This document shows, in pieces, positions 5,603-37,108 of a stretch of 39,736 nt of DNA (the stretch's first letter is position 1; each line of letters opens with the position of its first letter). The stretch comes from a phage. Position numbers and translations under genes: made by a program. Below the pieces are notes generated by a model. That model worked only from the letters and a program-made list of their open reading frames with translations, was not told the origin of the DNA and made no database searches. Location of the stretch: the sequence record PZ379179.1; one strand, 5' to 3'.

Positions 5603-5833
5603 ATGTCAATGAAACTTGTAGCACACAACAGGACATACAACGATGGGTCGGGACGTTGCCACGTAGAGCTGACTTATAAGGATTTAATCATTCTCCGAGA
5701 CAGATTACAGTCGGGTGTGACTGGGTGGATTCAACCTAACGAGTACAACCTTATAGCTTCGATTGATGAAGTTCTTAACGCGTGGATGGAAGACGAGCGC
5801 ATTCAGTATCCGTCATTCCCTCTAATTAGATAA
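5603..5833 (+). CDS. Hypothetical protein downstream of RNAP (76 aa)
   Basis: ATG with GGAGGAG RBS; no T7 counterpart at this position that I recognise. Confidence 0.55.
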   Translation: MSMKLVAHNRTYNDGSGRCHVELTYKDLIILRDRLQSGVTGWIQPNEYNLIASIDEVLNAWMEDERIQYPSFPLIR

Positions 5834-7707: not shown

Positions 7708-8118
7708 GTGGACGAAAGGTCGGCCTCCGGGCTGGCACTCCACTCTGGACGAAAGGTAGGAAGTAAGAAGAAGTCCGGCTATTGGACGATAAACGTCAGG
7801 ACACCGTGGGGCCGAAAGCATCTACAGGTTCATAGGGTAATATGGGAGATGACACACGGTCCCATACCAGACGGCATGGAGATTGACCACATTGACCGGA
7901 ACCCTTCTAATAACAGGCTGTCCAACCTGCGACTGGTGACTCACTCCGAGAACAACCAGAACAAAGGACAGATGTCCACCAACACTACCGGAGAACGTCA
8001 CATCTCAAAGGTGAAAGGTCGAGAGCTTTACTGTATCAAGAAGGTGGTCAACGGAGAGCGCTTGGTCCTATATGCCAAGACCATAGCCGAGGCAGTAGCC
8101 TTAAGAGATTCATTATAA
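7708..8118 (+). CDS. HNH homing-type endonuclease (copy A)
   Basis: HNH core [46 protein letters not shown]. The track ORF starts inside the ligase gene; alignment with the paralog at 36668 puts the N-terminus at GTG 7708, directly after the ligase stop. No in-frame ATG is available. Confidence 0.7.
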   Translation: MDERSASGLALHSGRKVGSKKKSGYWTINVRTPWGRKHLQVHRVIWEMTHGPIPDGMEIDHIDRNPSNNRLSNLRLVTHSENNQNKGQMSTNTTGERHISKVKGRELYCIKKVVNGERLVLYAKTIAEAVALRDSL

Positions 8119-10954: not shown

Positions 10955-11218
10955 ATGGCAACTTTAACAAAAAAAGAACGGGCATGGTTGAACGAATTAC
11001 AGGACGTTCTTGATCGCTGTCCATCACCGAAAAAAATTGGCTTTTACACCATTGGCGATAAAAGCATTTACCTGTATGACCTGCGCCGCATGGATGAAAT
11101 AATGGAGGCTCTTGATAATCGTTCGTCGATGGATTGGTGTGTTGCTGTTCATGATATGAATGCAGGGTTTGATGAAAAGATTTTGTTCCCCTCATCAGTT
11201 GAAAGCACTGCGGGTTAA
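10955..11218 (+). CDS. Hypothetical accessory protein (87 aa) with atypical codon usage
   Basis: ATG with AAGGAGAG RBS. Lower GC and AAA-rich lysine codons (ACAAAAAAAGAA, CCGAAAAAAATT), in contrast to the AAG-rich backbone. No recognisable domain. Confidence 0.6.
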   Translation: MATLTKKERAWLNELQDVLDRCPSPKKIGFYTIGDKSIYLYDLRRMDEIMEALDNRSSMDWCVAVHDMNAGFDEKILFPSSVESTAG

Positions 11219-15638: not shown

Positions 15639-15920
15639 ATGCCTACCGGATGTATCGTCTGCGTGTCCCACAAGAGGAACCAAGATGGGTACTTCCGGTA
15701 CTCCATGGGAAGCTACAGGAAGGGCAACAAGTTCGCCTTCATGTTCCACCGATGGGTGTGGGAGCAGAAGCGCGGACCTATACCAAATGGCTACGAAATA
15801 GACCATTTGTGCTTGAACCGTGGGTGCTGCAACATAGAGCATCTACAGTGTATTCCAAAACGCGAACACGTCATTAAGACGAACCGTGAGCGCAAACTTG
15901 TTAAGAAGGAGTGTCACTAA
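15639..15920 (+). CDS. HNH endonuclease (T7 gene 5.3 position)
   Basis: 93 aa from the ATG at 15639 (the track ORF starts inside the polymerase gene); HNH with Cys ligands, HRWVWEQKRGPIPNGYEIDHLCLNRGCCNIEHLQ. Confidence 0.65.
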   Translation: MPTGCIVCVSHKRNQDGYFRYSMGSYRKGNKFAFMFHRWVWEQKRGPIPNGYEIDHLCLNRGCCNIEHLQCIPKREHVIKTNRERKLVKKECH

Positions 15921-16204
15921 TGGCTATTACTAAACGTATTCGTGTGAGTTTTGATCTGAAGATGGTTGTTAACTCAAAGGAAGAAGATACCATGTGTCGC
16001 CAACTGGCTGAGATGACTAAAGCCTACGCTGAGGGTGAGGAGCTGGATGGTCTTCAGTTGGCTCTGGTCAAAACCGCAATCGAGTCAGGCCCTGAGTCTG
16101 CCCTTGAAATTGCCCTCAAGAAGACCATCAAGGAGGAGCTGGTAGACGACTTTGGTTATGGCCAGTTCGGAGTATCTAACCTGCGATTCGAGGTCAAGCA
16201 ATGA
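15920..16204 (+). CDS. gp5.5-like protein (putative H-NS-binding)
   Basis: ATG at 15920 overlaps the upstream stop; AAGAAGGAG RBS. N-terminus MAITKRIRVSFD resembles recalled T7 gp5.5 (MAMTKKFKVSFD). Confidence 0.6.
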   Translation: MAITKRIRVSFDLKMVVNSKEEDTMCRQLAEMTKAYAEGEELDGLQLALVKTAIESGPESALEIALKKTIKEELVDDFGYGQFGVSNLRFEVKQ

Positions 16205-18673: not shown

Positions 18674-20242
18674 ATGGCTGAACGTGAAGGATTTGCTGCT
18701 GAAGGCGCGAAGTCAGTTTATGATAGACTGAAGAACGGTAGACAGCCATACGAGACACGCGCTCAGAACTGTGCTGCTGTCACTATCCCGTCACTGTTTC
18801 CTAAGGAGTCCGACAACTCGTCTACGGAATACGTGACGCCGTGGCAAGCTGTAGGTGCTCGCTGTTTGAACAACTTGGCTGCAAAGCTGATGTTGGCGTT
18901 ATTCCCTCAGTCACCGTGGATGCGACTGACAGTCTCCGAATATGAGGCTAAGACATTAAGTCAGGACTCAGAGGCTGCTGCTCGTGTTGACGAGGGGCTT
19001 GCTATGGTCGAGCGTGTGTTGATGGCCTACATGGAGACAAACAGTTTCCGTGTTCCATTGTTCGAAGCTCTGAAGCAGCTTATAGTCTCCGGTAACTGTC
19101 TGCTCTACATTCCAGAGCCTGAACAGGGAACCTACAGTCCTATGCGAATGTACCGCTTAGTGTCCTACGTTGTCCAACGTGATGCGTTCGGTAACATCTT
19201 GCAGATTGTGACTCTCGACAAGGTAGCGTTTAGTGCTCTACCGGAAGACGTGAAGTCTCAACTCAACGCAGACGACTATGAGCCTGACACCGAGCTTGAA
19301 GTGTATACGCACATATACCGTCATGACGACGAGTATCTGCGTTACGAGGAAGTGGAAGGCATTGAGGTGACAGGGACCGATGGTTCCTACCCGCTGACTG
19401 CATGTCCATACATCCCTGTACGAATGGTTCGACTGGATGGTGAAGACTACGGTCGTTCTTATTGCGAGGAGTATCTGGGGGACCTGAACTCGCTGGAGAC
19501 GATTACAGAAGCTATCACCAAAATGGCTAAGGTAGCCTCCAAGGTGGTGGGCCTCGTTAACCCGAACGGTATCACGCAACCTCGTCGTCTGAACAAGGCG
19601 GCTACAGGTGAGTTCGTGGCTGGTCGCGTTGAGGACATCAACTTCCTGCAACTGACGAAAGGTCAGGACTTTACGATTGCCAAGTCGGTGGCTGACGCTA
19701 TCGAGCAACGTTTAGGATGGGCCTTCCTTCTTAATAGTGCTGTTCAGCGTAATGCTGAGCGCGTGACTGCTGAAGAGATTCGTTATGTTGCTGGCGAACT
19801 GGAGGCGACCTTAGGTGGCGTGTACTCAGTGCAGTCACAAGAGCTTCAGTTACCTATAGTCCGTGTGCTGATGAACCAACTTCAGTCTGCTGGCATGATT
19901 CCTGACCTTCCGAAAGAAGCGGTAGAGCCTACTGTCTCCACTGGTCTGGAAGCTCTGGGCCGTGGTCAGGACTTAGAGAAGCTAACTCAGGCAGTCAACA
20001 TGATGACTGGGCTACAACCTCTGCAACAGGACCCAGACATTAACTTGCCGACCCTGAAGCTGCGACTGCTGAATGCCTTAGGTATTGACACTGCTGGTTT
20101 GCTGCTGACGCAAGACGAGAAGATTCAGCGCATGGCTGAGCAGTCGTCACAACAGGCAGTTGTCCAAGGTGCTAGTGCTGCTGGTGCTAACATGGGTGCT
20201 GCTGTAGGTCAGGGAGCTGGTGAGGACATGGCTCAAGCCTAA
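18674..20242 (+). CDS. Portal (head-to-tail connector) protein (T7 gene 8 homolog)
   Basis: 522 aa; ETRAQNCA...TIPSLFPK...TPWQAVGAR...LYRLVSYVVQRDAFGN...RMVRLDGEDYGRSY...ERVTAEEIRYVA collinear with T7 gp8. Confidence 0.96.
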   Translation: MAEREGFAAEGAKSVYDRLKNGRQPYETRAQNCAAVTIPSLFPKESDNSSTEYVTPWQAVGARCLNNLAAKLMLALFPQSPWMRLTVSEYEAKTLSQDSEAAARVDEGLAMVERVLMAYMETNSFRVPLFEALKQLIVSGNCLLYIPEPEQGTYSPMRMYRLVSYVVQRDAFGNILQIVTLDKVAFSALPEDVKSQLNADDYEPDTELEVYTHIYRHDDEYLRYEEVEGIEVTGTDGSYPLTACPYIPVRMVRLDGEDYGRSYCEEYLGDLNSLETITEAITKMAKVASKVVGLVNPNGITQPRRLNKAATGEFVAGRVEDINFLQLTKGQDFTIAKSVADAIEQRLGWAFLLNSAVQRNAERVTAEEIRYVAGELEATLGGVYSVQSQELQLPIVRVLMNQLQSAGMIPDLPKEAVEPTVSTGLEALGRGQDLEKLTQAVNMMTGLQPLQQDPDINLPTLKLRLLNALGIDTAGLLLTQDEKIQRMAEQSSQQAVVQGASAAGANMGAAVGQGAGEDMAQA

Positions 20243-20260
20243 ACTATCACTATAGGAACA
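20238..20260 (+). promoter_or_regulatory. Phage RNAP promoter (phi9-like)
   Basis: CCTAAACTATCACTATAGGAACA; the portal stop codon TAA is embedded in the promoter. Confidence 0.7.
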
Positions 20261-20336
20261 ACACCGTAAGTCCAACTCTAGGTGAGTCAACTAGACGAGG
20301 CAGGTGTTACCTATTAACTACCAAAGGAGAGACTTA

Positions 20337-21221
20337 ATGTCCCAATCAGTTTATGCCGAGTTCGGCGTTAGCTCTAATGCAATCACTGGTTCCGTTGAGG
20401 ACCTGAACGAACACCAGAAGTCTATGCTTGAACAGGACGTAGCGGTACGTGATGGCGACGACGCTATTACCTTCAAGCAACTGGAAGCCGAAAACGAAGA
20501 GGCTGCCGAAGAAGACGAGAACGTCGAAGAGACTGAAGGTGAAGAAGACCACGAGTCCGATGACGAAGAGTCTGAGACCGATGGTGAACAACCTGAGTTC
20601 GTCGAACTGGGTGATGCACCTAAAGAGCTGACCGAAAGTGTCACCGCTCTGGATGAAAACGAAGCTGCATTTGACGACATGGTGTCTTCTGCTGTAGAAG
20701 CTGGCAAGGTCACTGCTGATGAAATTACCGCTATCAAGGCTGAATACGCCAAGGACGGTAAGCTGTCTGACGCATCCTACGCTAAGTTGCAGGAAGCAGG
20801 TTACACCAAGCGCTTCGTAGATTCGTTTGTCCGTGGTCAGGAAGCTCTGGCTGAACAGTATGCCGCTGGTGTGGTTCGCTACGCTGGTGGTGCTGAACAG
20901 TTTAATCGCATCCTGTCACACCTTGAGTCCAACGACCCGTCAACTCGTGAAGCATTGGAAGCTGCCATCGTTCGTAAGGACATTGCGACTACCAAAGCTC
21001 TGCTGAATCTGGCTGGCAAGACTCTGGGTAAAGCTGTGGGTGTTAAACCTCAGCGTACCATCACCACTCAGGCTAAACCTGTGGTCGCACCTAAGGCTCC
21101 TCAGACCGAAGCATTCAGCTCCAAGGCTGACATGATTAAGGCTATGAGTGACCCGCGATACCTGCGTGACGCTAAATACACGATGGAAGTTCGCGCTAAG
21201 GTAGCTGCCTCAAGCCTGTAG
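20337..21221 (+). CDS. Capsid assembly (scaffolding) protein (T7 gene 9 homolog)
   Basis: 294 aa from the ATG at 20337 with AAGGAGAG RBS (the track ORF opens at GTG 20304); strongly acidic central region; lies between portal and capsid. Confidence 0.85.
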   Translation: MSQSVYAEFGVSSNAITGSVEDLNEHQKSMLEQDVAVRDGDDAITFKQLEAENEEAAEEDENVEETEGEEDHESDDEESETDGEQPEFVELGDAPKELTESVTALDENEAAFDDMVSSAVEAGKVTADEITAIKAEYAKDGKLSDASYAKLQEAGYTKRFVDSFVRGQEALAEQYAAGVVRYAGGAEQFNRILSHLESNDPSTREALEAAIVRKDIATTKALLNLAGKTLGKAVGVKPQRTITTQAKPVVAPKAPQTEAFSSKADMIKAMSDPRYLRDAKYTMEVRAKVAASSL

Positions 21222-21222
21222 G

Positions 21223-21245
21223 ACTAAACTATCACTATAGGGAGA
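21223..21245 (+). promoter_or_regulatory. Phage RNAP promoter (phi10-like, full consensus)
   Basis: CTAAACTATCACTATAGGGAGA, including the GGGAGA initiation region typical of strong late promoters; upstream of the capsid gene. Confidence 0.85.
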
Positions 21246-21347
21246 CCAAGAGAAAGACTCAAGGTTTCCCTATTACTTCAGTCCATACGGATTGGGCATA
21301 CAGTAAGTAATAAACTTTATCTTTCAATTGAATAGGAGAATTATCAT

Positions 21348-22397
21348 ATGGCAAACGTTCCGGGTCAGAAAGTTGGTACAGACCAAGGTAAAGGCAAATC
21401 TGGTTCCGACGCTCTGGCGTTGTTCCTGAAGGTCTTTGCTGGCGAAGTCCTGACAGCATTCACTCGCCGCTCTGTAACTGCTGACAAGCATATTGTCCGT
21501 ACCATTCAGAACGGTAAGTCTGCTCAGTTCCCGGTCATGGGTCGCACCTCTGGTGTGTATCTGGCTCCGGGTGAGCGACTGTCCGATAAGCGTAAAGGTA
21601 TCAAACATACCGAGAAAGTGATTACCATTGATGGTCTGCTGACTGCCGATGTGATGATTTTCGACATTGAAGACGCGATGAACCACTATGACGTGGCTGG
21701 CGAGTACTCCAACCAGTTGGGCGAAGCTCTGGCTATCGCTGCCGATGGTGCGGTACTGGCTGAGATGGCTATTCTGTGTAACCTACCGGCTGCATCTGAT
21801 GAAAACATCGCTGGTCTTGGCAAAGCGTCTGTGCTGAAAGTTGGTACTAAAGCAGACCTGAACACTCCGGCTAAGCTGGGTGAAGCAATCATCGGTCAAC
21901 TGACCATTGCTCGTGCGAAGCTGACATCCAACTACGTTCCTGCTGGCGACCGTTACTTCTACACCACACCGGACAACTACTCTGCAATCCTCGCGGCTCT
22001 GATGCCGAACGCTGCTAACTATGCTGCGCTGATTGACCCAGAGACTGGTAACATCCGTAACGTAATGGGCTTCGTGGTTGTTGAAGTTCCACACTTGACT
22101 CAGGGTGGTGCTGGGGAAACTCGTGGTGCCGATGGTATCACTATTGCGACTGGTCAGAAGCACGCCTTCCCAGCTACTGCTACTGGTGATGTTAAAGTTG
22201 CTCTGGACAACGTTGTGGGCCTGTTCTCTCACCGTTCTGCTGTAGGTACTGTTAAGCTGCGTGACTTGGCGCTGGAACGTGACCGCGACGTCGATGCTCA
22301 GGGCGACCTGATTGTTGGTAAGTACGCTATGGGCCACGGTGGTCTGCGTCCAGAAGCAGCAGGCGCACTGGTTTTCACAGCGGCGTCAGCGGGTTAA
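21348..22397 (+). CDS. Major capsid protein 10A
   Basis: 349 aa; LALFLKVF.GEVLTAF...SGKSAQFPV...HTEKVITIDGLLTADV...EDAMNHYDV...AILAALMPNAANYAALIDPE...RNVMGF.VVEVPHLT...RSAVGTVKLRDLALER...AMGHGGLRPEAAGA matches T7 gp10A. Confidence 0.97.
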   Translation: MANVPGQKVGTDQGKGKSGSDALALFLKVFAGEVLTAFTRRSVTADKHIVRTIQNGKSAQFPVMGRTSGVYLAPGERLSDKRKGIKHTEKVITIDGLLTADVMIFDIEDAMNHYDVAGEYSNQLGEALAIAADGAVLAEMAILCNLPAASDENIAGLGKASVLKVGTKADLNTPAKLGEAIIGQLTIARAKLTSNYVPAGDRYFYTTPDNYSAILAALMPNAANYAALIDPETGNIRNVMGFVVVEVPHLTQGGAGETRGADGITIATGQKHAFPATATGDVKVALDNVVGLFSHRSAVGTVKLRDLALERDRDVDAQGDLIVGKYAMGHGGLRPEAAGALVFTAASAG

Positions 22398-22660
22398 CGA
22401 CCTTTAAGGCCCTCTCTACAGAGGGTCCTACCTTAGAGACGTATAGTTCTACGGTGGGAACCAGCCTGAAGGTTGACTTCCCTGAGCTTTCAGATGTGAC
22501 CGATTGGTCGCTGCTTGAGGTGACTACGCCTGATGGTGTTAGCTACTCCCGTAGAACCAACAGTCTCTACTTCAAGGCCACCTCTGGCGTGGAAGGTCTG
22601 GTGATTGTTGGGTATGACGGTACGCCTGTGCGTTCCTTCAACGTATCTTTCACAAACTAA
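21348..22660 (+). CDS. Minor capsid protein 10B, predicted -1 ribosomal frameshift product
   Basis: Slippery G_GTT_TTC at 22370-22376 lies 7 codons before the 10A stop. The -1 frame is open from there to 22660 (about 94 extra residues), analogous to T7 10A/10B. Confidence 0.5.
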
Positions 22661-22664
22661 TTGA

Positions 22665-22703
22665 AACCCCTTGGGTGCCTTCGGGTGCTTGAGGGGTTTT
22701 TTG
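22665..22703 (+). terminator. Tphi-like late terminator
   Basis: AAACCCCTTGGGTGCCTTCGGGTGCTTGAGGGGTTTTTTG: GC-rich hairpin plus U-tract, closely resembling the T7 Tphi terminator downstream of gene 10. Confidence 0.85.
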
Positions 22704-22717
22704 CTTAAGGAGGGACT

Positions 22718-22807
22718 ATGGTCCTTATTTACACAGGGTTAGCACTATTCGTCTTATTCTGGGCGTACCTGCTGTCCAGCTCACCGTCTAGCGCCTATGA
22801 CCGTTAA
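22718..22807 (+). CDS. Small hydrophobic ORF (29 aa)
   Basis: ATG with AAGGAGGG RBS just after the terminator; MVLIYTGLALFVLFWAYLLSSSPSSAYDR is one predicted TM helix. Below the track size cut-off. Confidence 0.4.
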   Translation: MVLIYTGLALFVLFWAYLLSSSPSSAYDR

Positions 22808-22818
22808 GGAGTAAACCT

Positions 22819-23385
22819 ATGGCTCAATACATTCCACTGAATGCTAACGATGACTTAGATGCCATCAACGATATGTTAGCAGCTATCGGTGAACCAGCAG
22901 TCCTACAGCTTGACGAAGGTAACGCTGACGTCTCGAACGCTCAACGTATCCTGCATCGTGTCAATCGTCAGGTCCAAGCTAAAGGCTGGAACTTTAACAT
23001 CAACGAAGCTGCTGTCCTGACACCTGATGTCCAAGACAATAGGATTCGATTCCTGCCGTCTTACCTTCGGGTCATGACTGCTGGTGCTACCAGTTACTAC
23101 AGCAACATGGGGGGCTATCTCTATGACCTCTCCACTCAGTCCACGACCTTCACTGGACCAATTACAGTCGAACTGGTGGAGATGAAACCGTTCGCTGAGA
23201 TGCCTGTAGTATTCCGTGACTACATCGTTACCAAGGCTAGCCGTGAGTTCAACGCTAAGTTCTTCGGTAGCCCAGAGTCTGAACTGTACCTTCGTGAGCA
23301 GGAAGCAGAACTCTACCAGCAGGTGATGGAGTACGAGATGGACACTGGTCGCTACAACATGATGTCCGACATCGGGAGGGACTAA
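22819..23385 (+). CDS. Tail tubular protein A (T7 gene 11 homolog)
   Basis: 188 aa; AINDMLAAIGEP, RILHRVNRQVQAKGWNFN and IVTKASREFNAKFFG match T7 gp11 motifs. Confidence 0.93.
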   Translation: MAQYIPLNANDDLDAINDMLAAIGEPAVLQLDEGNADVSNAQRILHRVNRQVQAKGWNFNINEAAVLTPDVQDNRIRFLPSYLRVMTAGATSYYSNMGGYLYDLSTQSTTFTGPITVELVEMKPFAEMPVVFRDYIVTKASREFNAKFFGSPESELYLREQEAELYQQVMEYEMDTGRYNMMSDIGRD

Positions 23386-23612
23386 TGGCTAGTCACAACC
23401 TGAAGATTCACCGCCAGCACTTTGGTCCGGTACAACTAGGTCTAAAGACAGCAGAGCTGAGACTTAACGACCGGGACTTTAAGGTTGGCGACTGGCTTAT
23501 CCTGAATGAGTGGGACAACGGGTATACTGGACAACAGGTAGCACGTAAGGTTGTCCACATTGCTGACGTTGGTGACATCGCTGAGGGATACGTCCTAATG
23601 AGTATGATTTAA
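23385..23612 (+). CDS. ASCH / DUF3850-like (PUA-fold) small protein inserted between tail genes 11 and 12
   Basis: 75 aa; start overlaps the gp11 stop. LKIHRQHFGPVQLGLKTAELRLNDRDFKVGDWLILNEW fits the DUF3850/ASCH pattern as I recall it (ELKIWPEYF...GRKTFE.RKNDRDYKVGD.L.L.E). Confidence 0.6.
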   Translation: MASHNLKIHRQHFGPVQLGLKTAELRLNDRDFKVGDWLILNEWDNGYTGQQVARKVVHIADVGDIAEGYVLMSMI

Positions 23613-23621
23613 GGAGGGCCT

Positions 23622-25979
23622 ATGCCACTAATTACTCAATCAATCAAGAACCTTAAAGGTGGCATTAGCCAGCAGCCAGACATCCTGAGGTTCTCGGACC
23701 AAGGAGAGGAACAGGTAAACTGCTGGTCATCAGAGAGTGATGGCCTACAGAAGCGTCCACCTACAGTCTTCAAGAGACGTCTTAACATCGACGTTGGGAG
23801 CAACCCTAAGTTCCACCTGATTAACCGTGACGAGCATGAGCAGTATTACATCGTGTTCAACGGGTCAAACATTCAGGTAGTTGACTTGAGTGGTAATCAA
23901 TACTCAGTTTCCGGTGCGGTAGATTACGTTAAGTCGTCCAACCCGCGAGATGACATCCGTGTCGTTACTGTTGCAGACTATACGTTCATCGTGAACCGTA
24001 AGGTTGTCGTTAAAGGTGGAAGCGAGAAGTCACACTCTGGTTATAACCGCAAAGCACGAGCTTTAATTAACCTGCGTGGCGGACAGTATGGTCGAACCCT
24101 TAAGGTGGGAATCAACGGTGGCGTTAAGGTCTCGCATAAGCTACCAGCAGGTAATGATGCCGAGAATGACCCACCTAAGGTGGACGCTCAAGCCATCGGT
24201 GCAGCTCTGAGAGACCTTCTTGTTGCTGCTTACCCTACCTTCACGTTCGACCTTGGGTCTGGATTCCTGTTAATCACTGCCCCTTCAGGGACTGACATTA
24301 ACTCAGTGGAGACGGAGGATGGCTATGCTAACCAGCTAATCAGCCCAGTACTCGACACGGTGCAAACAATCTCTAAGTTGCCTCTTGCAGCTCCAAATGG
24401 GTACATCATTAAGATTCAAGGTGAGACCAACAGTAGCGCCGATGAATATTACGTGATGTATGACTCCAACACTAAGACGTGGAAGGAGACAGTAGAGCCG
24501 GGAGTGGTCACTGGGTTCGATAACACCACAATGCCTCATGCTCTGGTGAGACAATCTGACGGCTCCTTTGAGTTCAAGACTCTGGACTGGTCTAATCGTG
24601 GTGCTGGTAATGATGACACAAACCCTATGCCTAGCTTCGTGGATGCTACGATTAACGATGTGTTCTTCTACAGGAATAGGCTGGGGTTCTTGTCAGGCGA
24701 GAACGTAATCATGAGCCGTTCAGCCAGCTACTTTGCGTTCTTCCCTAAGAGTGTGGCTACACTGAGTGATGATGATCCTATTGACGTAGCTGTAAGTCAT
24801 CCTAGAATCTCAATCCTTAAGTATGCCGTTCCGTTTAGCGAGCAGCTACTACTTTGGTCGGATGAGGTGCAGTTCGTGATGACAAGCTCTGGGGTCCTTA
24901 CCTCGAAGTCTATCCAGCTTGATGTAGGCTCAGAGTTTGCTTTAGGAGATAATGCCAGACCGTTCGCTGTAGGACGCTCAGTCTTCTTCTCAGCGCCTCG
25001 TGGGTCATTCACCAGCATTAAGCGATACTTCGCTGTAGCAGATGTGTCTGACGTGAAGGATGCTGATGATACCACTGGACACGTACTATCCTATATCCCT
25101 AACGGGGTGTTTGACATTCAAGGTACAGGGACTGAGAACTACATCTGCGTCAACTCTACAGGTGCATACAACCGAATCTACATCTACAAGTTCTTGTTTA
25201 AGGACGGCGTACAGCTTCAAGCCTCTTGGTCGCACTGGGAGTTCTCTAAATCTGATAAGATTCTGGCGTCTGCGTCGATTGGCTCTACCATGTTCATTGT
25301 TCGTCAGCACCAAGGCGGAGTGGACCTTGAGCACCTTAAGTTCATCAAGGAGGCAACCGACTTTCCGTTAGAGCCATATAGACTCCACGTTGACTCCAAG
25401 GTGTCTATGGTAATACCAATTGGCTCATACAACGCTGACACCTATAAGACTACGGTTGACATTGGTTCTGCTTATGGTGGAAACGCTCCGTCTCCCGGTA
25501 GGTACTATCTGATTGACAGTCAGGGTGCCTACGTGGACCTTGGTGAATTGACCAGCATCTCAACTGTGTCTGTACTCAATGGCGATTGGTCAGGACGTAC
25601 AGTGTTCATCGGACGGTCTTATCTGATGTCCTACAAGTTCTCACGGTTCCTGATTAAGATTGAAGACGAGAGTGGCACTCAGTCTGAAGACACTGGTCGT
25701 CTACAGCTTCGTCGTGCTTGGGTAAACTACAAGGACACTGGCGCTCTGAGACTCATTGTCAGAAACGGTGAGCGGGAGTTCGTGAACACCTTTAATGGGT
25801 ACACCCTTGGTCAGCAAACCATAGGGACTACCAACATTGGGGATGGTCAGTATCGATTCGCTATGAATGGCAACGCATTAACCACGAGTCTAACCTTAGA
25901 GTCCGACTATCCTACCCCAGTGTCCATCGTTGGGTGTGGCTGGGAGGCGTCATACGCTAAGAAAGCTCGTTCCGTTTAA
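23622..25979 (+). CDS. Tail tubular protein B (T7 gene 12 homolog)
   Basis: 785 aa ORF with TAAGGAGGG RBS, at the T7 gene 12 position and of matching size. Confidence 0.9.
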   Translation: MPLITQSIKNLKGGISQQPDILRFSDQGEEQVNCWSSESDGLQKRPPTVFKRRLNIDVGSNPKFHLINRDEHEQYYIVFNGSNIQVVDLSGNQYSVSGAVDYVKSSNPRDDIRVVTVADYTFIVNRKVVVKGGSEKSHSGYNRKARALINLRGGQYGRTLKVGINGGVKVSHKLPAGNDAENDPPKVDAQAIGAALRDLLVAAYPTFTFDLGSGFLLITAPSGTDINSVETEDGYANQLISPVLDTVQTISKLPLAAPNGYIIKIQGETNSSADEYYVMYDSNTKTWKETVEPGVVTGFDNTTMPHALVRQSDGSFEFKTLDWSNRGAGNDDTNPMPSFVDATINDVFFYRNRLGFLSGENVIMSRSASYFAFFPKSVATLSDDDPIDVAVSHPRISILKYAVPFSEQLLLWSDEVQFVMTSSGVLTSKSIQLDVGSEFALGDNARPFAVGRSVFFSAPRGSFTSIKRYFAVADVSDVKDADDTTGHVLSYIPNGVFDIQGTGTENYICVNSTGAYNRIYIYKFLFKDGVQLQASWSHWEFSKSDKILASASIGSTMFIVRQHQGGVDLEHLKFIKEATDFPLEPYRLHVDSKVSMVIPIGSYNADTYKTTVDIGSAYGGNAPSPGRYYLIDSQGAYVDLGELTSISTVSVLNGDWSGRTVFIGRSYLMSYKFSRFLIKIEDESGTQSEDTGRLQLRRAWVNYKDTGALRLIVRNGEREFVNTFNGYTLGQQTIGTTNIGDGQYRFAMNGNALTTSLTLESDYPTPVSIVGCGWEASYAKKARSV

Positions 25980-26003
25980 CTTATTGAAGGGCCTATAGAT
26001 TTA

Positions 26004-26026
26004 CCTTAACTATCACTATAGGGACT
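26004..26026 (+). promoter_or_regulatory. Phage RNAP promoter (phi13-like)
   Basis: CTTAACTATCACTATAGGGACT; predicted +1 G at 26021. Confidence 0.75.
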
Positions 26027-26055
26027 ATAGGCCCTTAAGGTTATAAGGAGACTTT

Positions 26056-26526
26056 ATGTATATTCGCAAGGCTACGGAACAGGATGTCCGCTACTTTCTG
26101 TGGCATCTTTCAGTAGATGACGTTAAGGAATGCAAAGCAAACTACGGGTCAACCGTGGGTCTCTCTGAAAGACTGCTTACGCATCTAACTCCGTCATCTG
26201 TGGTTTTAACTAACTGTGTAGGAGAAGTGTTTGCCTATGGTGGGAACCAAGGTGATAACGTGTGGTTCCTGACTTCCGGTCTTGTCCATAAGCTGAGACC
26301 TAAAGAGAAGAGAGAGTTCATTCAGCGCATCTCTGAGTACAGGGACTTAATGTTAGACCAATACGGGACCATCTGGAACTACGTGTGGTCAGGCAATAAG
26401 TCTCACATTAAATTCTTGAAGTTGCTTGGGGCTAAGTTCCATGATGATTGGACTATCAGCCCGGTAACTGGTGAGCATTTTCAATTATTCACTATCTCTA
26501 AGGAGGACGTATGTGTGAACCCGTAA
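26056..26526 (+). CDS. Internal virion protein A (gp13-like)
   Basis: 156 aa, AAGGAG RBS; precedes gp14 as in T7. Confidence 0.6.
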   Translation: MYIRKATEQDVRYFLWHLSVDDVKECKANYGSTVGLSERLLTHLTPSSVVLTNCVGEVFAYGGNQGDNVWFLTSGLVHKLRPKEKREFIQRISEYRDLMLDQYGTIWNYVWSGNKSHIKFLKLLGAKFHDDWTISPVTGEHFQLFTISKEDVCVNP

Positions 26527-27098
26527 GTATCGGCATGGGTATCATGGCTGTAGCCGGGGCCACTATGTCCGCATCCCAGCAGGCAAAGGCCGAAGGTGCA
26601 GCAATTGACGCTCAGAACCGACAGGCTCAGGAAATGGTTAAGCAGATGAACTACTCTGACGCCAACCTGAGAATGCAGGAGCGAGACCTGAAGGAGCAGC
26701 AGATGGCTGAACTGACAGAGACCACGCTCAACGGTATTCGCAATCAGGGTATGGTACGAGCTGCGGTGGCTGAGTCCGGTCTGGAAGGTAACTCTATGGA
26801 CAGGATTGAACGTCAGGTCGCAGGAGATACAGTCAAGGAGCGAGCAGGGATTACCGAAAGTTACAACCGAGACTATGCGGCTATCTTCGGGAACCGTATC
26901 GCCAACATTGAGAACACCAAGTCTGCTATCCGTGGTCAGGGTAAAATCATCAAGACCAGCCCACTGGCTCATGCACTTAATGTTGCTACCGCCGGGATGC
27001 AAGGTTACGCCGCTGGTAAGTCAATCTCTGGAGCGTCCAGCTCTGGCGGTGCTGCACCAATTAGTGCTGCTAAAGGTACACCTACAGGTCATAGCTAA
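26511..27098 (+). CDS. Internal virion (core) protein B (T7 gp14 homolog)
   Basis: 195 aa; NSMDRIERQVAGDTVKERAGITESYNRDYAAIFGN...ISAAKGTPTG resembles T7 gp14 (SSMDRIKRVTEGQFIREANMVTENYRRDYQAIFAQ...VAAKGTKTG). Confidence 0.85.
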   Translation: MCEPVSIGMGIMAVAGATMSASQQAKAEGAAIDAQNRQAQEMVKQMNYSDANLRMQERDLKEQQMAELTETTLNGIRNQGMVRAAVAESGLEGNSMDRIERQVAGDTVKERAGITESYNRDYAAIFGNRIANIENTKSAIRGQGKIIKTSPLAHALNVATAGMQGYAAGKSISGASSSGGAAPISAAKGTPTGHS

Positions 27099-27109
27099 GA
27101 GGAGGACTA

Positions 27110-29392
27110 ATGGCTAGTAATATTGAATCAGCTCTGGCTAATCGGACTATGGGTCGTGGCAGAGCGCCTGGTAAAACTATAGCCGTCAACTATCAAGCAG
27201 CCAACGTTCAGGCCCCTACTGGTGACTCAGGTCTGGCTCGTGCGTTAACCAACTTCGTTGAGTCTGGGACTGGATTATACAAGCAGTTCAAAGACGATGA
27301 GAAGACACGGGCCGACGAGCGGTCTAACGAGATTATCCGTAAGCTGACACCTCAGCAAAGACGTGAGGCTATCCAGAACGGCACATTGCTGTATCAGGAT
27401 GACCCTTACGCTATGGAAGCACTTCGAGTCAAGACTGGTCGTAATGCTGCCTTTGCGGTGGATGACGAGATTAACGTTAAGATTCAGAACGGTGAGTTCC
27501 GTACACGTCAGGACATGGAAGAGTATCGCCACCAGCGACTTCAGGACGCCGCTAAGTCCTATGCTGAAGAGGCGGGTATTAACCCTACCGATGAGTTCTT
27601 CCAGCGCGGGTTCAACGATAACATCACAGACCGCAACATCGCTATCTATGGGTCTTTCAATAAGTATTTCAGCAAGCAGTCTGAAGAGACAGCAATGTTG
27701 AACACTCGTATTGAGATGAACTCATTCCTGAACGATGGGGACCTGATGCGTTCTCCTGAGTCTGGAAAGACCTTCATGGCCTACCTTCGGGATGGACTAA
27801 CGACTGCTGCTATCCCTTCGGACCAGCGAGCACGAGAGGTCATTACCCAGACGGTCAGTGACGCAATCCAGAAGTCAGGCGGCTCAAACTTCCTACAGCA
27901 AGTACGAGGCGAGCGAATCACCCTTAACGGCGTGGACGCTACAGTCGAAGAGATTGTAGGACCTGATGTCTTCAACGCTGCTATTGTTGAGGCACAAGGA
28001 ACTGAGTACAAGCTGGTGGCTAAGTATCAGGAGGACTTATCGTTAGGCGTTCAGTCTGCGATTCTTCAGGACGACCCAACCATCGGTCTTGCCCAGATTC
28101 AGAAACTCAAGGAGCAGAACAACCTGCTTCAGCCGGGTGAAGAACTCACGCCTCAGCGTCAGATGCTTATTAATGCTGAAGCGAGCTTACTGGAAGCGGT
28201 CAAGCGTAAGTCTGCTGAACAGGCTAAGGAGAACACTAAGTTAATCCAGACTCAGAACAAGCAACTGGTCATTGACCAAGTGTATCAGCGACGTCTGGCT
28301 GGAGACAATGTGTCCACCAACTATGAGGACCTTCCGGTATCAGATGCTACAGGAGAGTTCAAGCGTTCGGACATGAACAACTATGCGTCTTCTAAGCTAC
28401 AGCAGATTGACCATATGGACATCCCTGAGGCTGCTAAGGACGCACAGAAGGTTGCATTATTAAGAGCTGACACTAACAACGGTCCGTTCCGTAATGCCTT
28501 CCAAACGCTTACTCAGGACGCTGCTGGTGAGTGGCAAGCTGCTGTCATCCGTGGACAGTACGACCCAGACAAGATGAAACGCTTCGAGTCTCTTCGTCGT
28601 GCCTACACTCAGGACCCTTCAAGTTTCGCTGCTCTGTATCCTGACCAAGCTCAGTTGTTCTCTACGTTCGACCAGATGGACAAGATGGGTCTGGACCCTC
28701 AGACGATGATTGAAGCTGATAAGCAAGCTGCAAGTCAAAGCCGTGAGATGCGCATGGAGTCAGACAAGGCGTGGCAGGAGTTGAAGAACGACTCTCGGAA
28801 TAAGGACCTTTCGCGTCTTCCTACATCTCTGGACGCAAGTGCTCGTAAGGTCTGGGACTCATGGTACTATCGTACAGGTAACGCTGACGCTGCAACTCAG
28901 CAGACTCAACGCTGGCTGAATGAGAACACCGTAACGTTCCAGTCTGAGGGTTCTGATGGTAAGTCCATAGGCATGGTGTCCAAACACCAGCTTATGGTCG
29001 GGGATAACCCAGAGTCGTGGCAGGTGGGGCGAGACATTATCGACACCGCTCGTAAGCAGCTCATTAAGGCTAACCCTTGGGTAGTGAACTCTCAGTTGTC
29101 CGTTGTTGAACAGAACGGCTCTATCTTCCTCCAAGACGCTACAGGGACTATTCGTATTCGCTACGATAAAGAACTTGTAGGTAAACTCTACCGCGAACAA
29201 CAGCAGAAGGCACAAGATGCCGCATATGCTCAGGCAGAACGTGACGCTAACAAGAGAGCGCGTATCGTCGGGACTAAAGCTGCTGGTGACAAACGTCGAG
29301 CTGACCGAGAGGCCAACATCGAGAAGCGCGGAGGGATGTACAATGACGTCTCACTGGAGGGTATCGCAAACGTACTAATCGGTAAGGAGTAA
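27110..29392 (+). CDS. Internal virion (core) protein C (T7 gp15 homolog)
   Basis: 760 aa; DERSNEIIRKLTPQQRREAIQNGTLLYQDDPYAMEALRVKTGRNAA and IRIRYDKEL align with T7 gp15. Confidence 0.93.
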   Translation: MASNIESALANRTMGRGRAPGKTIAVNYQAANVQAPTGDSGLARALTNFVESGTGLYKQFKDDEKTRADERSNEIIRKLTPQQRREAIQNGTLLYQDDPYAMEALRVKTGRNAAFAVDDEINVKIQNGEFRTRQDMEEYRHQRLQDAAKSYAEEAGINPTDEFFQRGFNDNITDRNIAIYGSFNKYFSKQSEETAMLNTRIEMNSFLNDGDLMRSPESGKTFMAYLRDGLTTAAIPSDQRAREVITQTVSDAIQKSGGSNFLQQVRGERITLNGVDATVEEIVGPDVFNAAIVEAQGTEYKLVAKYQEDLSLGVQSAILQDDPTIGLAQIQKLKEQNNLLQPGEELTPQRQMLINAEASLLEAVKRKSAEQAKENTKLIQTQNKQLVIDQVYQRRLAGDNVSTNYEDLPVSDATGEFKRSDMNNYASSKLQQIDHMDIPEAAKDAQKVALLRADTNNGPFRNAFQTLTQDAAGEWQAAVIRGQYDPDKMKRFESLRRAYTQDPSSFAALYPDQAQLFSTFDQMDKMGLDPQTMIEADKQAASQSREMRMESDKAWQELKNDSRNKDLSRLPTSLDASARKVWDSWYYRTGNADAATQQTQRWLNENTVTFQSEGSDGKSIGMVSKHQLMVGDNPESWQVGRDIIDTARKQLIKANPWVVNSQLSVVEQNGSIFLQDATGTIRIRYDKELVGKLYREQQQKAQDAAYAQAERDANKRARIVGTKAAGDKRRADREANIEKRGGMYNDVSLEGIANVLIGKE

Positions 29393-36224: not shown

Positions 36225-36671
36225 ATGCTCGAATTTTTAAAGAGAGCGGCTCCGTGGTTACTTTCAGCAGTGATATTTGCTGGTGGCTACCACACCGCTA
36301 ACAATAAGTGGGAGGCTAAGGTCAATGCAGAATACACCTCGAATCTTAAGGCATCGGAGGATACAAGACTTGCTGTCCAAGCTGAAGTCAACAAAGTGTC
36401 CAAACGGTTTCAGGACGAAATGTCCTCGCTGGAAGGCAGCACTGATAGGATTATTGCTGACCTTCAGTCTGACAATAAGCGGTTGCGCATCCGAGTCAAA
36501 CCTACGAGTGGAACCACGCAAAGTGACGGTCGATGCGTCATTGATGGTTACGCCGAACTTGACGAACGAGATGCTAAACGTCTTATCGCCATCGGAGTGA
36601 AAGGAGACAAATGGATTAAGGCGCTTCAGGACACTGTGAGAGCCTTGCAGCAAGATAAGGAGGCCCAATGA
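36225..36671 (+). CDS. i-spanin, Rz-like (T7 gp18.5 homolog)
   Basis: 148 aa; MLEFLKRAAPWLL...LEGSTDRIIADLQSDNKRLRIRVK...LDERDAKRLIA...GDKWIKALQDTVRALQ matches T7 gp18.5; N-terminal TM segment. Confidence 0.9.
   Translation: MLEFLKRAAPWLLSAVIFAGGYHTANNKWEAKVNAEYTSNLKASEDTRLAVQAEVNKVSKRFQDEMSSLEGSTDRIIADLQSDNKRLRIRVKPTSGTTQSDGRCVIDGYAELDERDAKRLIAIGVKGDKWIKALQDTVRALQQDKEAQ
36325..36600 (+). CDS. o-spanin, Rz1-like lipoprotein embedded in the +1 frame of the i-spanin gene
   Basis: Track ORF 36277..36600 in an alternative frame inside gp18.5; contains a lipobox-like LTISGC after a hydrophobic stretch LIGLLLTFS. Start uncertain (first ATG at 36325). Confidence 0.45.
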   Translation: MQNTPRILRHRRIQDLLSKLKSTKCPNGFRTKCPRWKAALIGLLLTFSLTISGCASESNLRVEPRKVTVDASLMVTPNLTNEMLNVLSPSE

Positions 36672-37108
36672 TGCTCAGTGATTCGTATGTCTATGATGAG
36701 TCCAGTAAGTCTGGCCTGAAGTCCCTGCGTTCTGGTAAGGACGTGGGGTGTGTGGGAAACCACGGGTATTATCAGGTAGGAACTCGACGTCATGGACTCC
36801 TACTGGCCCATAGAGTCGTCTGGGAACTAACCCACGGTCCTATACCAGAAGGTATGGAGATTGACCATATTGACCGCTGCCGGACTAACAACAGGCTGGA
36901 CAACCTCCGGCTAGTTACTTCAAGCGAGAACTCCTGCAACACCTCAGGACATTCTGACTCAAAGACTGGAGTTAAGAACATATCGTTCCATCAGAATGGC
37001 TACGCTATCGAGGTCATGCGTAAGGGAGTCCGTATGCGAACAACACGTCCTACTTTAGAGGAGGCTATCTCTGTCCGGGACCTAATGCTGGAGGGACTCT
37101 ATGTCTAA
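36668..37108 (+). CDS. HNH homing-type endonuclease (copy B, paralog of 7708..8118)
   Basis: 146 aa; [13 protein letters not shown]...[41 protein letters not shown], about 60% identical to copy A across the core. Overlaps the gp18.5 stop and the terminase start. Confidence 0.8.

Follow-up and report, generated by a model that had tools for sequence, protein, structure and literature searches.

A stand-alone DUF3850 (mini-ASCH) gene between the tail genes 11 and 12 of a K1F-like phage: an accessory gene with a possible role in binding or hydrolysing modified bases

The short open reading frame (ORF) located between the tail tubular genes 11 and 12 in phage record PZ379179.1, here called gene 11.5, is a real gene under purifying selection, and we are highly confident both that it encodes a member of the DUF3850 (mini-ASCH) family and that it is an accessory gene. 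The stretch analysed, referred to as the window, comprises 39,736 bp and constitutes a complete T7-like genome with 161-bp direct terminal repeats and with all major genes on the + strand. Around gene 11.5 the genome shares 99.8% identity with Escherichia phage vB_EcoP-U8, and many Kayfunavirus records match this region at 90-97%, which places the phage, as judged from its sequence, among the K1F-like members of the Studiervirinae. At the level of annotation the gene is already known: proteins 96-100% identical to its product (gp11.5) have been deposited as 'DUF3850 domain-containing protein' or 'RNA-binding protein', and the counterpart in Citrobacter phage CR44b is annotated as gene 11.05. 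We found no paper on the function of gene 11.5 or 11.05, and mentions of DUF3850 in the literature are at annotation level or belong to a survey of ParB fusions. Gene 11.5 is an ordinary, already annotated accessory gene of an uncharacterised family, and we propose, tentatively, that its product is a cytoplasmic protein that would bind, and perhaps hydrolyse, a modified base.

A preliminary description of this DNA had assigned the ORF to the DUF3850/ASCH family with its PUA-like fold, and this is borne out by profile searches as well as by structure prediction. In searches with hidden Markov models (HMMs), gp11.5 matches positions 2-76 of the 77-position Pfam DUF3850 model (PF12961) with 70.1 bits (E 1.9e-19, cut-off 22.9). 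Its match to Pfam ASCH (PF04266) scores 26.2 bits (cut-off 21.2) but extends over model positions 2-61 of 103 only. PHROG 986 is matched with an E value of 2.8e-35 across positions 95-171 of its 253-position profile, while an NCBIfam scan returned nothing meaningful. The predicted model of gp11.5 consists of one helix and five strands, ends at residue 75 and has the fold of the solved DUF3850 structure 3IUW, and a Foldseek search against viral models returned other phage DUF3850/ASCH proteins. The protein behind 3IUW, an 83-amino-acid (aa) 'activating signal cointegrator' of Enterococcus faecalis deposited as a structural-genomics entry, belongs to Pfam DUF3850 just as gp11.5 does, but its gene is bacterial and not part of a T7-like tail operon, and no function has been reported for it either. 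A complete ASCH domain, i.e. a beta-barrel followed by C-terminal helices and spanning ~100 residues or more, is not present in gp11.5, which is, as modelled, a truncated 'mini-ASCH'.

Selection was assessed in 14 Kayfunavirus copies of the gene, namely those of the window, of Vec13 and of 12 IMG/VR contigs. The ORF is intact and terminated by TAA in all 14, and the pairwise ratio of non-synonymous to synonymous substitution rates (dN/dS) ranges from 0.04 to 0.47, lies at 0.1-0.3 where divergence permits an estimate and is 0.10-0.14 in the most diverged pairs (dS ~1). The integrity of the ORF and these ratios, together with the Pfam DUF3850 and PHROG 986 matches, rule out a chance ORF. Two antisense ORFs, at 23408-23578 and 23442-23558, were taken as chance ORFs within a selected coding region. 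A frameshift fusion of gp11 with gp11.5 was likewise considered and rejected: gene 11.5 lies in frame -1 relative to gene 11, and this frame stays open further upstream, yet a slippery heptamer is missing and the ATG is served by a Shine-Dalgarno sequence of its own. The GC content of gene 11.5 (0.487 versus 0.500 for the genome) and its codon-adaptation index (0.68, within the range of the other genes, on an index built from the phage's own genes) are native. This native composition and codon usage, together with the diverged alleles that occupy the same slot, led us to reject a recent horizontal acquisition. They also speak against the suggestion of the preliminary description that the gene is a moron: gene 11.5 lacks a dedicated promoter and terminator, and it resembles a moron only in being present in some relatives and absent from others.

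With respect to this distribution, T7 indeed has no gene between genes 11 and 12, the gap measuring 23 nt only, as had been pointed out before. K1F, the type phage of the genus, also lacks gene 11.5, and the same GGGAGGGACTAATG there is the start of gene 12. Compared with the window, K1F shows a clean 237-bp indel, while gp11 and gp12 of the two phages are 99% and 97% identical, respectively. Since K1F thus has nearly the same tail proteins but not gene 11.5, the gene is not needed for building the tail. Ro45lw is another phage without it, having an 11-nt spacer instead. On the other side, gene 11.5 is present, and always at this site, in 156 of the 211 phage records that match the gene 11-12 junction, carriers being counted as records that cover at least 80% of a junction query of which the 237-bp segment makes up 28%; tblastn with gp11.5 retrieved 155 records at 80% protein identity or above. 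Gene 11.5 is, in short, a presence/absence polymorphism and is dispensable. When all ORFs of the window were compared for presence in CR44b and absence from K1F and Ro45lw, no co-varying partner emerged besides gene 11.5 itself. Some near-identical Kayfunavirus records carry implausible hosts in their names (Enterococcus phage EFA-1, Staphylococcus phage MBBL139, Acinetobacter phage vB_Aba_01KA and Klebsiella phage Pkp-1) and are probably contaminating coliphages or mislabelled.

The slot has been occupied for a long time. Metagenomic contigs hold gene 11.5 alleles of 67-68% identity between genes matching Pfam Tube and Phage_nozzle, and gene 11.05 of CR44b occupies the same slot at 44% identity. 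Across these diverged loci gene 11 remains 93-99% identical (81% in CR44b), whereas gene 11.5 diverges together with the type of gene 12, being 85%, 68% and 67% identical where gp12 is 75%, 74% and 71% identical. This pattern, with gene 11 conserved and gene 11.5 following gene 12, argues for an old slot and for a mosaic boundary where gene 11 ends. Hence, the earlier view that the gene was inserted holds in so far as K1F and Ro45lw lack it, but not if it is meant to imply a newcomer, as alleles down to 44-68% identity sit in the same place. In our sample of fetched loci, the arrangement of a DUF3850 gene flanked by genes 11 and 12 was confined to Kayfunavirus-like genomes. The genes of Vec13, LM33_P1, EcoDS1, FFK3 and others, as well as 11.05 of CR44b, share with gene 11.5 the site, the TAATG overlap and the size. 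The CR44b allele (locus L092, NC_023576, 22053-22277) differs from gene 11.5 in that its octapeptide reads GIKTCDLR (E24D), the family-invariant NDRD loop is replaced by SIPE and K7 has become Ile, perhaps a sign that the function has been relaxed or altered in this lineage.

The TAATG overlap upholds the proposed translational coupling of gene 11.5 to gene 11 (Table 1). By alignment with K1F, the element there that is equivalent to the Shine-Dalgarno sequence of gene 11.5 serves gene 12 instead. The phage-polymerase promoter family CTAAACTATCACTATAGG occurs at 12 places in the window; neither a member of this family nor a terminator was found between genes 11 and 12, and sigma-70-like matches across 20000-27500 showed no excess (7 found versus 6.3 expected in shuffled sequence). 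As the nearest phage promoters are those upstream of gene 10 and downstream of gene 12, and the Tphi-like terminator lies before gene 11, genes 11, 11.5 and 12 need terminator read-through, as in T7. Gene 11.5 therewith has no expression signals of its own except for its Shine-Dalgarno sequence. A search of the whole window for RNA families (Rfam) gave no match, so that no hidden RNA element lies beneath the gene.

Table 1. Features of the gene 11-12 region and the neighbouring expression signals (window coordinates)
Feature	Position	Strand	Remarks
phi10-like promoter of the phage RNA polymerase, closest upstream	21218-21242	+	Upstream of gene 10; promoter repeat family
Tphi-like terminator	22678-22695		Hairpin, then T run
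Gene 11 (tail tubular protein A / Tube)	22819-23385	+	gp11 98-99% identical to Vec13 and K1F; Pfam Tube in relatives
Shine-Dalgarno GGGAGG of gene 11.5	23374-23379	+	5 nt upstream of ATG, within the 3' end of gene 11
Gene 11 stop TAA	23383-23385	+	Overlaps the gene 11.5 start
Gene 11.5 (75-aa single-domain DUF3850, mini-ASCH, PUA-like beta-barrel)	23385-23612	+	Product 8.5 kDa, isoelectric point (pI) 6.4
Gene 11.5 ATG	23385-23387	+	TAATG overlap with the gene 11 stop
237-bp segment absent from K1F	23385-23621	+	ATG to ATG: ORF plus new gene 12 Shine-Dalgarno
Codons of ASCH octapeptide G19-L-K21-T-A-E24-L-R26	23439-23462	+	GxKxxExR, 'GKER' type
Gene 11.5 stop codon	23610-23612	+	
Shine-Dalgarno GGAGGG of gene 12	23613-23618	+	Directly 3' of the gene 11.5 stop
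Gene 12 (tail tubular protein B / nozzle)	23622-25979	+	ATG at 23622; Pfam Phage_nozzle in relatives
Next phage promoter (phi13-like)	25999-26023	+	Downstream of gene 12; promoter repeat family

The late structural-operon position of gene 11.5 in Kayfunavirus is atypical for the DUF3850 family, in agreement with the remark in the preliminary description that it was unexpected. An exhaustive profile search returned 5324 representative clusters at E<=1e-3 and 138 at E<=1e-10, and elsewhere the family is met in early, replication or nin-like regions. DUF3850 genes stand among small early or accessory genes in a Kagunavirus-like coliphage and in Tunavirus, directly after the replication gene A in P2-like phages, and in the nin region, following O and P-like replication genes, in a lambdoid Erwinia phage. 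A Pfam scan of 100 genes neighbouring DUF3850 in about 50 IMG/VR loci showed no recurrent partner but only generic genes of replication, recombination or the nin region: NinB, NinG, primases, RecU, Gam, methyltransferases, Mom and late sigma factors, one to three times each. Domain fusions were no more telling: the partners in 80 multidomain relatives were DUF551 (9), dATP/dGTP pyrophosphohydrolase (1) and DUF7415 (1), one of 20 IMG/VR host ORFs scanned fused DUF3850 to the helix-turn-helix (HTH) domain DnaA_C, and none of these is mechanistically decisive.

H4, K21, E24, R26, D29, R30, D36, E42 and G49 show no variation across the 80 multidomain relatives, and among 75 short relatives each of them is either invariant or conserved to at least 90%; K7 is nearly invariant in both alignments. 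The window protein carries every one of these residues. Conservation of this kind would suit a catalytic or ligand site better than a scaffold. The stretch G19-L-K-T-A-E-L-R26 matches the octapeptide GxKxx[E/T/S]xR of the ASCH superfamily (Iyer, Burroughs and Aravind 2006), and in the HMM alignment to E. coli YqfB the residues K21, E24 and R26 of gp11.5 fall on K21, T24 and R26. This alignment ends near residue 57, and no equivalent of Glu74 of YqfB could be aligned in gp11.5. Two conserved aromatic residues of the alignment, F13 and Y68, are candidates for the role of Tyr14 and Tyr81, which position the nucleoside in TthASCH. Among otherwise near-identical IMG/VR alleles, single substitutions at or beside family-invariant positions were noticed twice, R30L in locus L016 (3001-3225) and D31G in locus L014 (589-813).

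We are confident that gp11.5 is an accessory protein made late, by translational coupling to gene 11. The explanation that we put forward, tentatively as a whole, is that this stand-alone minimal ASCH-superfamily (DUF3850) beta-barrel is a non-structural protein whose gene is co-transcribed with genes 11 and 12 by read-through from the phi9/phi10 promoters, and that it would act in the cytoplasm, where it would bind an RNA base or nucleotide, or a free nucleoside, in a conserved polar cleft. This putative cleft would be formed by the octapeptide G19xK21xxE24xR26 together with H4, K7, D29, R30, D36 and E42. The most likely chemistry would be a hydrolysis of the ASCH type, e.g. deacylation of N4-acylated cytosine (N4-acetylcytidine, ac4C, in tRNA or nucleosides), by way of a Lys/Glu dyad. 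Hydrolysis of a modified base is an inferred mechanism, which we put forward with slightly more caution. Deacylation of the ac4C type is favoured because it is the only activity so far documented for GKER-type ASCH proteins: in a recent preprint, 19 ASCH proteins of the GKTR and GKER octapeptide types were reported to strip ac4C from tRNA in vitro, with Lys and Glu being essential (bioRxiv 10.64898/2026.02.27.708502). Both residues of the dyad are found in gp11.5, as the family-invariant K21 and E24. With its octapeptide Lys and Glu intact, gp11.5 may be connected to RNA modification, and this part of the preliminary description stands as a plausible lead.

The likeness to characterised ASCH proteins is, however, partial. 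The GKER-type proteins TthASCH (2DP9), EOLA1 and the ASCH domain of TRIP4, which the preprint reports as tRNA ac4C deacetylases, have GxKxxExR with its Lys/Glu pair in common with gp11.5, but they measure 120-160 aa and carry extra helices, compared to 75 aa for gp11.5, and DUF3850, which has its own invariants H4, D29, R30, D36 and E42, was not among the proteins assayed in the preprint on the GKER type. YqfB of E. coli (1TE7, 9KYF), an N4-acetylcytidine amidohydrolase, relies on a Lys21/Thr24/Glu74 triad (PMC9599836); gp11.5 is 17% identical to it and 28 residues shorter, and keeps the Lys while having Glu in place of Thr24. We rejected a YqfB-type identity for gp11.5 on the grounds of this replacement and because the protein ends before any Glu74 equivalent. 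The ASCH fold accommodates further activities as well. ZmASCH (5GUQ) is a Mg-dependent ribonuclease specific for single-stranded RNA, with a basic cleft and no conserved acidic residues (PMC5615036), to which gp11.5 is 9% identical; in DUF3850, by contrast, four acidic residues are invariant and the pI is close to neutral. A DNA glycosylase that acts on 5-hydroxymethylcytosine and has ASCH-like barrels is yet another recorded case (10.64898/2026.02.25.707755).

Several points weigh against a base-binding or hydrolytic mini-ASCH. No DUF3850 protein has been assayed to date; in the ASCH preprint, inclusion in the structure-based tree required 80 or more residues aligned to YqfB, and the text contains neither the word 'phage' nor 3IUW (10.64898/2026.02.27.708502). 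gp11.5 is without the C-terminal helical part of canonical ASCH domains, it has Glu where YqfB has its nucleophile Thr24, and it offers no alignable Glu74 equivalent. A pI of 6.4 leaves it with no overall positive charge for nucleic-acid binding. The DUF3850-specific NDRD loop is without counterpart in characterised ASCH enzymes, and the substrate may be quite different. In CR44b the loss of this loop and the E24D change show that constraint on the proposed site is not universal. Nor is it evident how the removal of ac4C at a late stage of infection would benefit a lytic phage. Finally, fusions of the ParB-CTPase-DUF3850 type located beside parA hint at binding rather than catalysis (10.1101/2025.10.10.680097).

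This last point leads to the main rival, a purely binding role, in which the barrel would bind RNA or DNA, possibly at a modified or flipped base, and gp11.5 would serve as a small regulator, chaperone or reader, its targets possibly being late mRNA of the phage, tRNA of the host, or DNA undergoing replication or packaging. According to a PNAS survey, the ParB-CTPase-DUF3850 fusions are enriched in phages and prophages and bind CTP via their ParB part; they lack the usual HTH, suggesting that DUF3850 supplies the nucleic-acid binding (10.1101/2025.10.10.680097). Their DUF3850 domain is shared with gp11.5, which, unlike the fusions, is a bare domain with neither a ParB-like module nor a parA neighbour. 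The single DUF3850 fusion bearing the DnaA C-terminal HTH points in the same direction, as does the fact that database curators name the family 'RNA-binding protein', although such names are transferred annotations and not experimental. Against pure binding, the invariant residues K21, E24, R26, D29, R30, D36, E42 and H4 would sooner be expected in a catalytic or small-ligand site than on a binding surface, and the pI of 6.4 speaks against a binder, too. On balance, we consider a non-catalytic role somewhat unlikely, yet it is the alternative to be taken most seriously, the anti-defence, structural and functionless readings being less likely.

The preliminary description had also suggested an anti-defence role, which found no support in our searches. 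Such an effector might sequester or degrade a nucleotide signal or reverse a nucleic-acid modification made by a toxin, and it could be carried in the virion and injected. In its favour, counter-defence genes are typically present in some close relatives and absent from others, as gene 11.5 is, DUF3850 is widespread in accessory regions of unrelated phages (the 5324 cluster representatives), a small single-domain protein with a conserved pocket would fit such a task, and synthesis together with the virion proteins would allow packaging. Late expression would nevertheless be the wrong timing unless gp11.5 were packaged, and the mass-spectrometry notes on CR44b virions omit the homologue. The best PADLOC match (E 0.007, 14 bits) is noise, although PADLOC holds models of defence systems and an anti-defence library was not searched. 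Neither a conserved partner nor a co-varying gene was found, and selection at the site is of the ordinary purifying kind, with no sign of arms-race diversification. We therefore regard an anti-defence role as improbable. A similarly low probability is given to the boldest version of the hydrolase proposal, in which gp11.5 would be a phage eraser of an RNA base modification, stripping host tRNA of ac4C, or of some other N-acyl or modified base, late in infection, or would reverse an acyl mark installed by a toxin.

That gp11.5 is a tail-assembly factor, or a minor virion component working with gp11 and gp12, is very unlikely, and we are confident that it is not part of the tail. Its gene does lie within the gene 11-12 operon and is coupled to gene 11, and its divergence tracks the type of gp12; this co-divergence is, however, explained by linkage, the mosaic boundary falling where gene 11 ends. 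K1F, in spite of its highly similar gp11 and gp12, as well as Ro45lw and T7, do without gene 11.5, and in siphoviruses, myoviruses and lambdoid phages DUF3850 genes are for the most part found outside the structural regions. In the CR44b GenBank record, mass-spectrometry matches are given for gp7.3, 8, 9, 10A, 11, 12, 14, 15, 16, 17 and 17.01, hence for gp11 and gp12 but not for 11.05; as small proteins are easily missed, this silence is weak negative evidence with respect to a virion role. Last and least probable is a functionless passenger, a decaying remnant or chance ORF tolerated for preserving the coupling to gene 12, to which one may relate the dispensability in K1F and Ro45lw and the changes at family-invariant positions (R30L in one IMG/VR allele, the lost NDRD loop in CR44b), but which is largely refuted by the selection analysis, by ORFs that stay intact in all 14 copies and in the relatives of 67-68% identity, by the strong Pfam match and by the roughly 156 of 211 related records that keep the gene.

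Gene 11.5 offers a convenient natural plus/minus system for studying DUF3850 function, as near-isogenic phages with and without it are available (this phage versus K1F-type junctions). Being a bare domain, it is also a suitable object for biochemistry, and the ac4C deacylation described for ASCH proteins offers a concrete assay. A function for DUF3850, once found, would annotate thousands of phage genes. If the eraser proposal were true, gp11.5 would be the first viral enzyme to edit the host epitranscriptome in this way, and a function would be provided for the DUF3850 family of roughly 5000 clusters.

Apart from gene 11.5, several other features of the genome were noticed. An open frame at 22322-22660 (listed ORF 22454-22660, +), which is -1 with respect to gene 10 (21348-22397), takes in the final 75 nt of that gene and continues for 88 codons past its end. 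The sequence G GTT TTC, in the gene 10 frame, occurs at 22370-22376 and resembles the frameshift site of T7 gene 10. The 68-aa ORF at 22454-22660 is probably the tail of an unusually long frameshift extension (about 95 aa) of the minor capsid protein 10B. This extension, including the part upstream of the GTG, is 81-98% identical in loci L001, L009, L012 and L015, 48-53% in L019 and L090 and 96% in Ro45lw; it is absent from K1F and CR44b and has no Pfam match.

Between the Tphi-like terminator and gene 11 lies a 29-aa hydrophobic ORF (MVLIYTGLALFVLFWAYLLSSSPSSAYDR; 22719-22808, +) with the strong Shine-Dalgarno sequence AAGGAGGG. It is kept in loci L001 and L015 (79%) and, less closely, in L013 and L017 (45-52%, with the same ...SPYDR end), is unannotated in the Vec13 record and falls below the 30-aa minimum of our ORF listing. 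Its product may be a small membrane peptide.

A 132-nt direct repeat with 75% identity was found at 7822-7953 and 36800-36931. The second copy lies within the ORF 36668-37108, which is 65% identical to CR44b over 99% of its length and by position is probably the counterpart of the CR44b HNH endonuclease gene 3.8A. Together, the repeat and this match indicate that the phage probably has two related homing-endonuclease-like genes.

Four small ORFs of 75-87 aa on the + strand (1809-2045, 5603-5833, 10955-11218 and 15650-15877) had no tblastn match in K1F, Ro45lw or CR44b and are candidates for strain-specific accessory genes or chance ORFs. A 97-aa ORF at 15911-16204 (+) lies between genes 5 and 6, in the gene 5.5 slot of K1F, Ro45lw and CR44b; with 91% identity to CR44b and 31-36% to K1F and Ro45lw, it appears to represent a second allele type of gene 5.5 within the genus.

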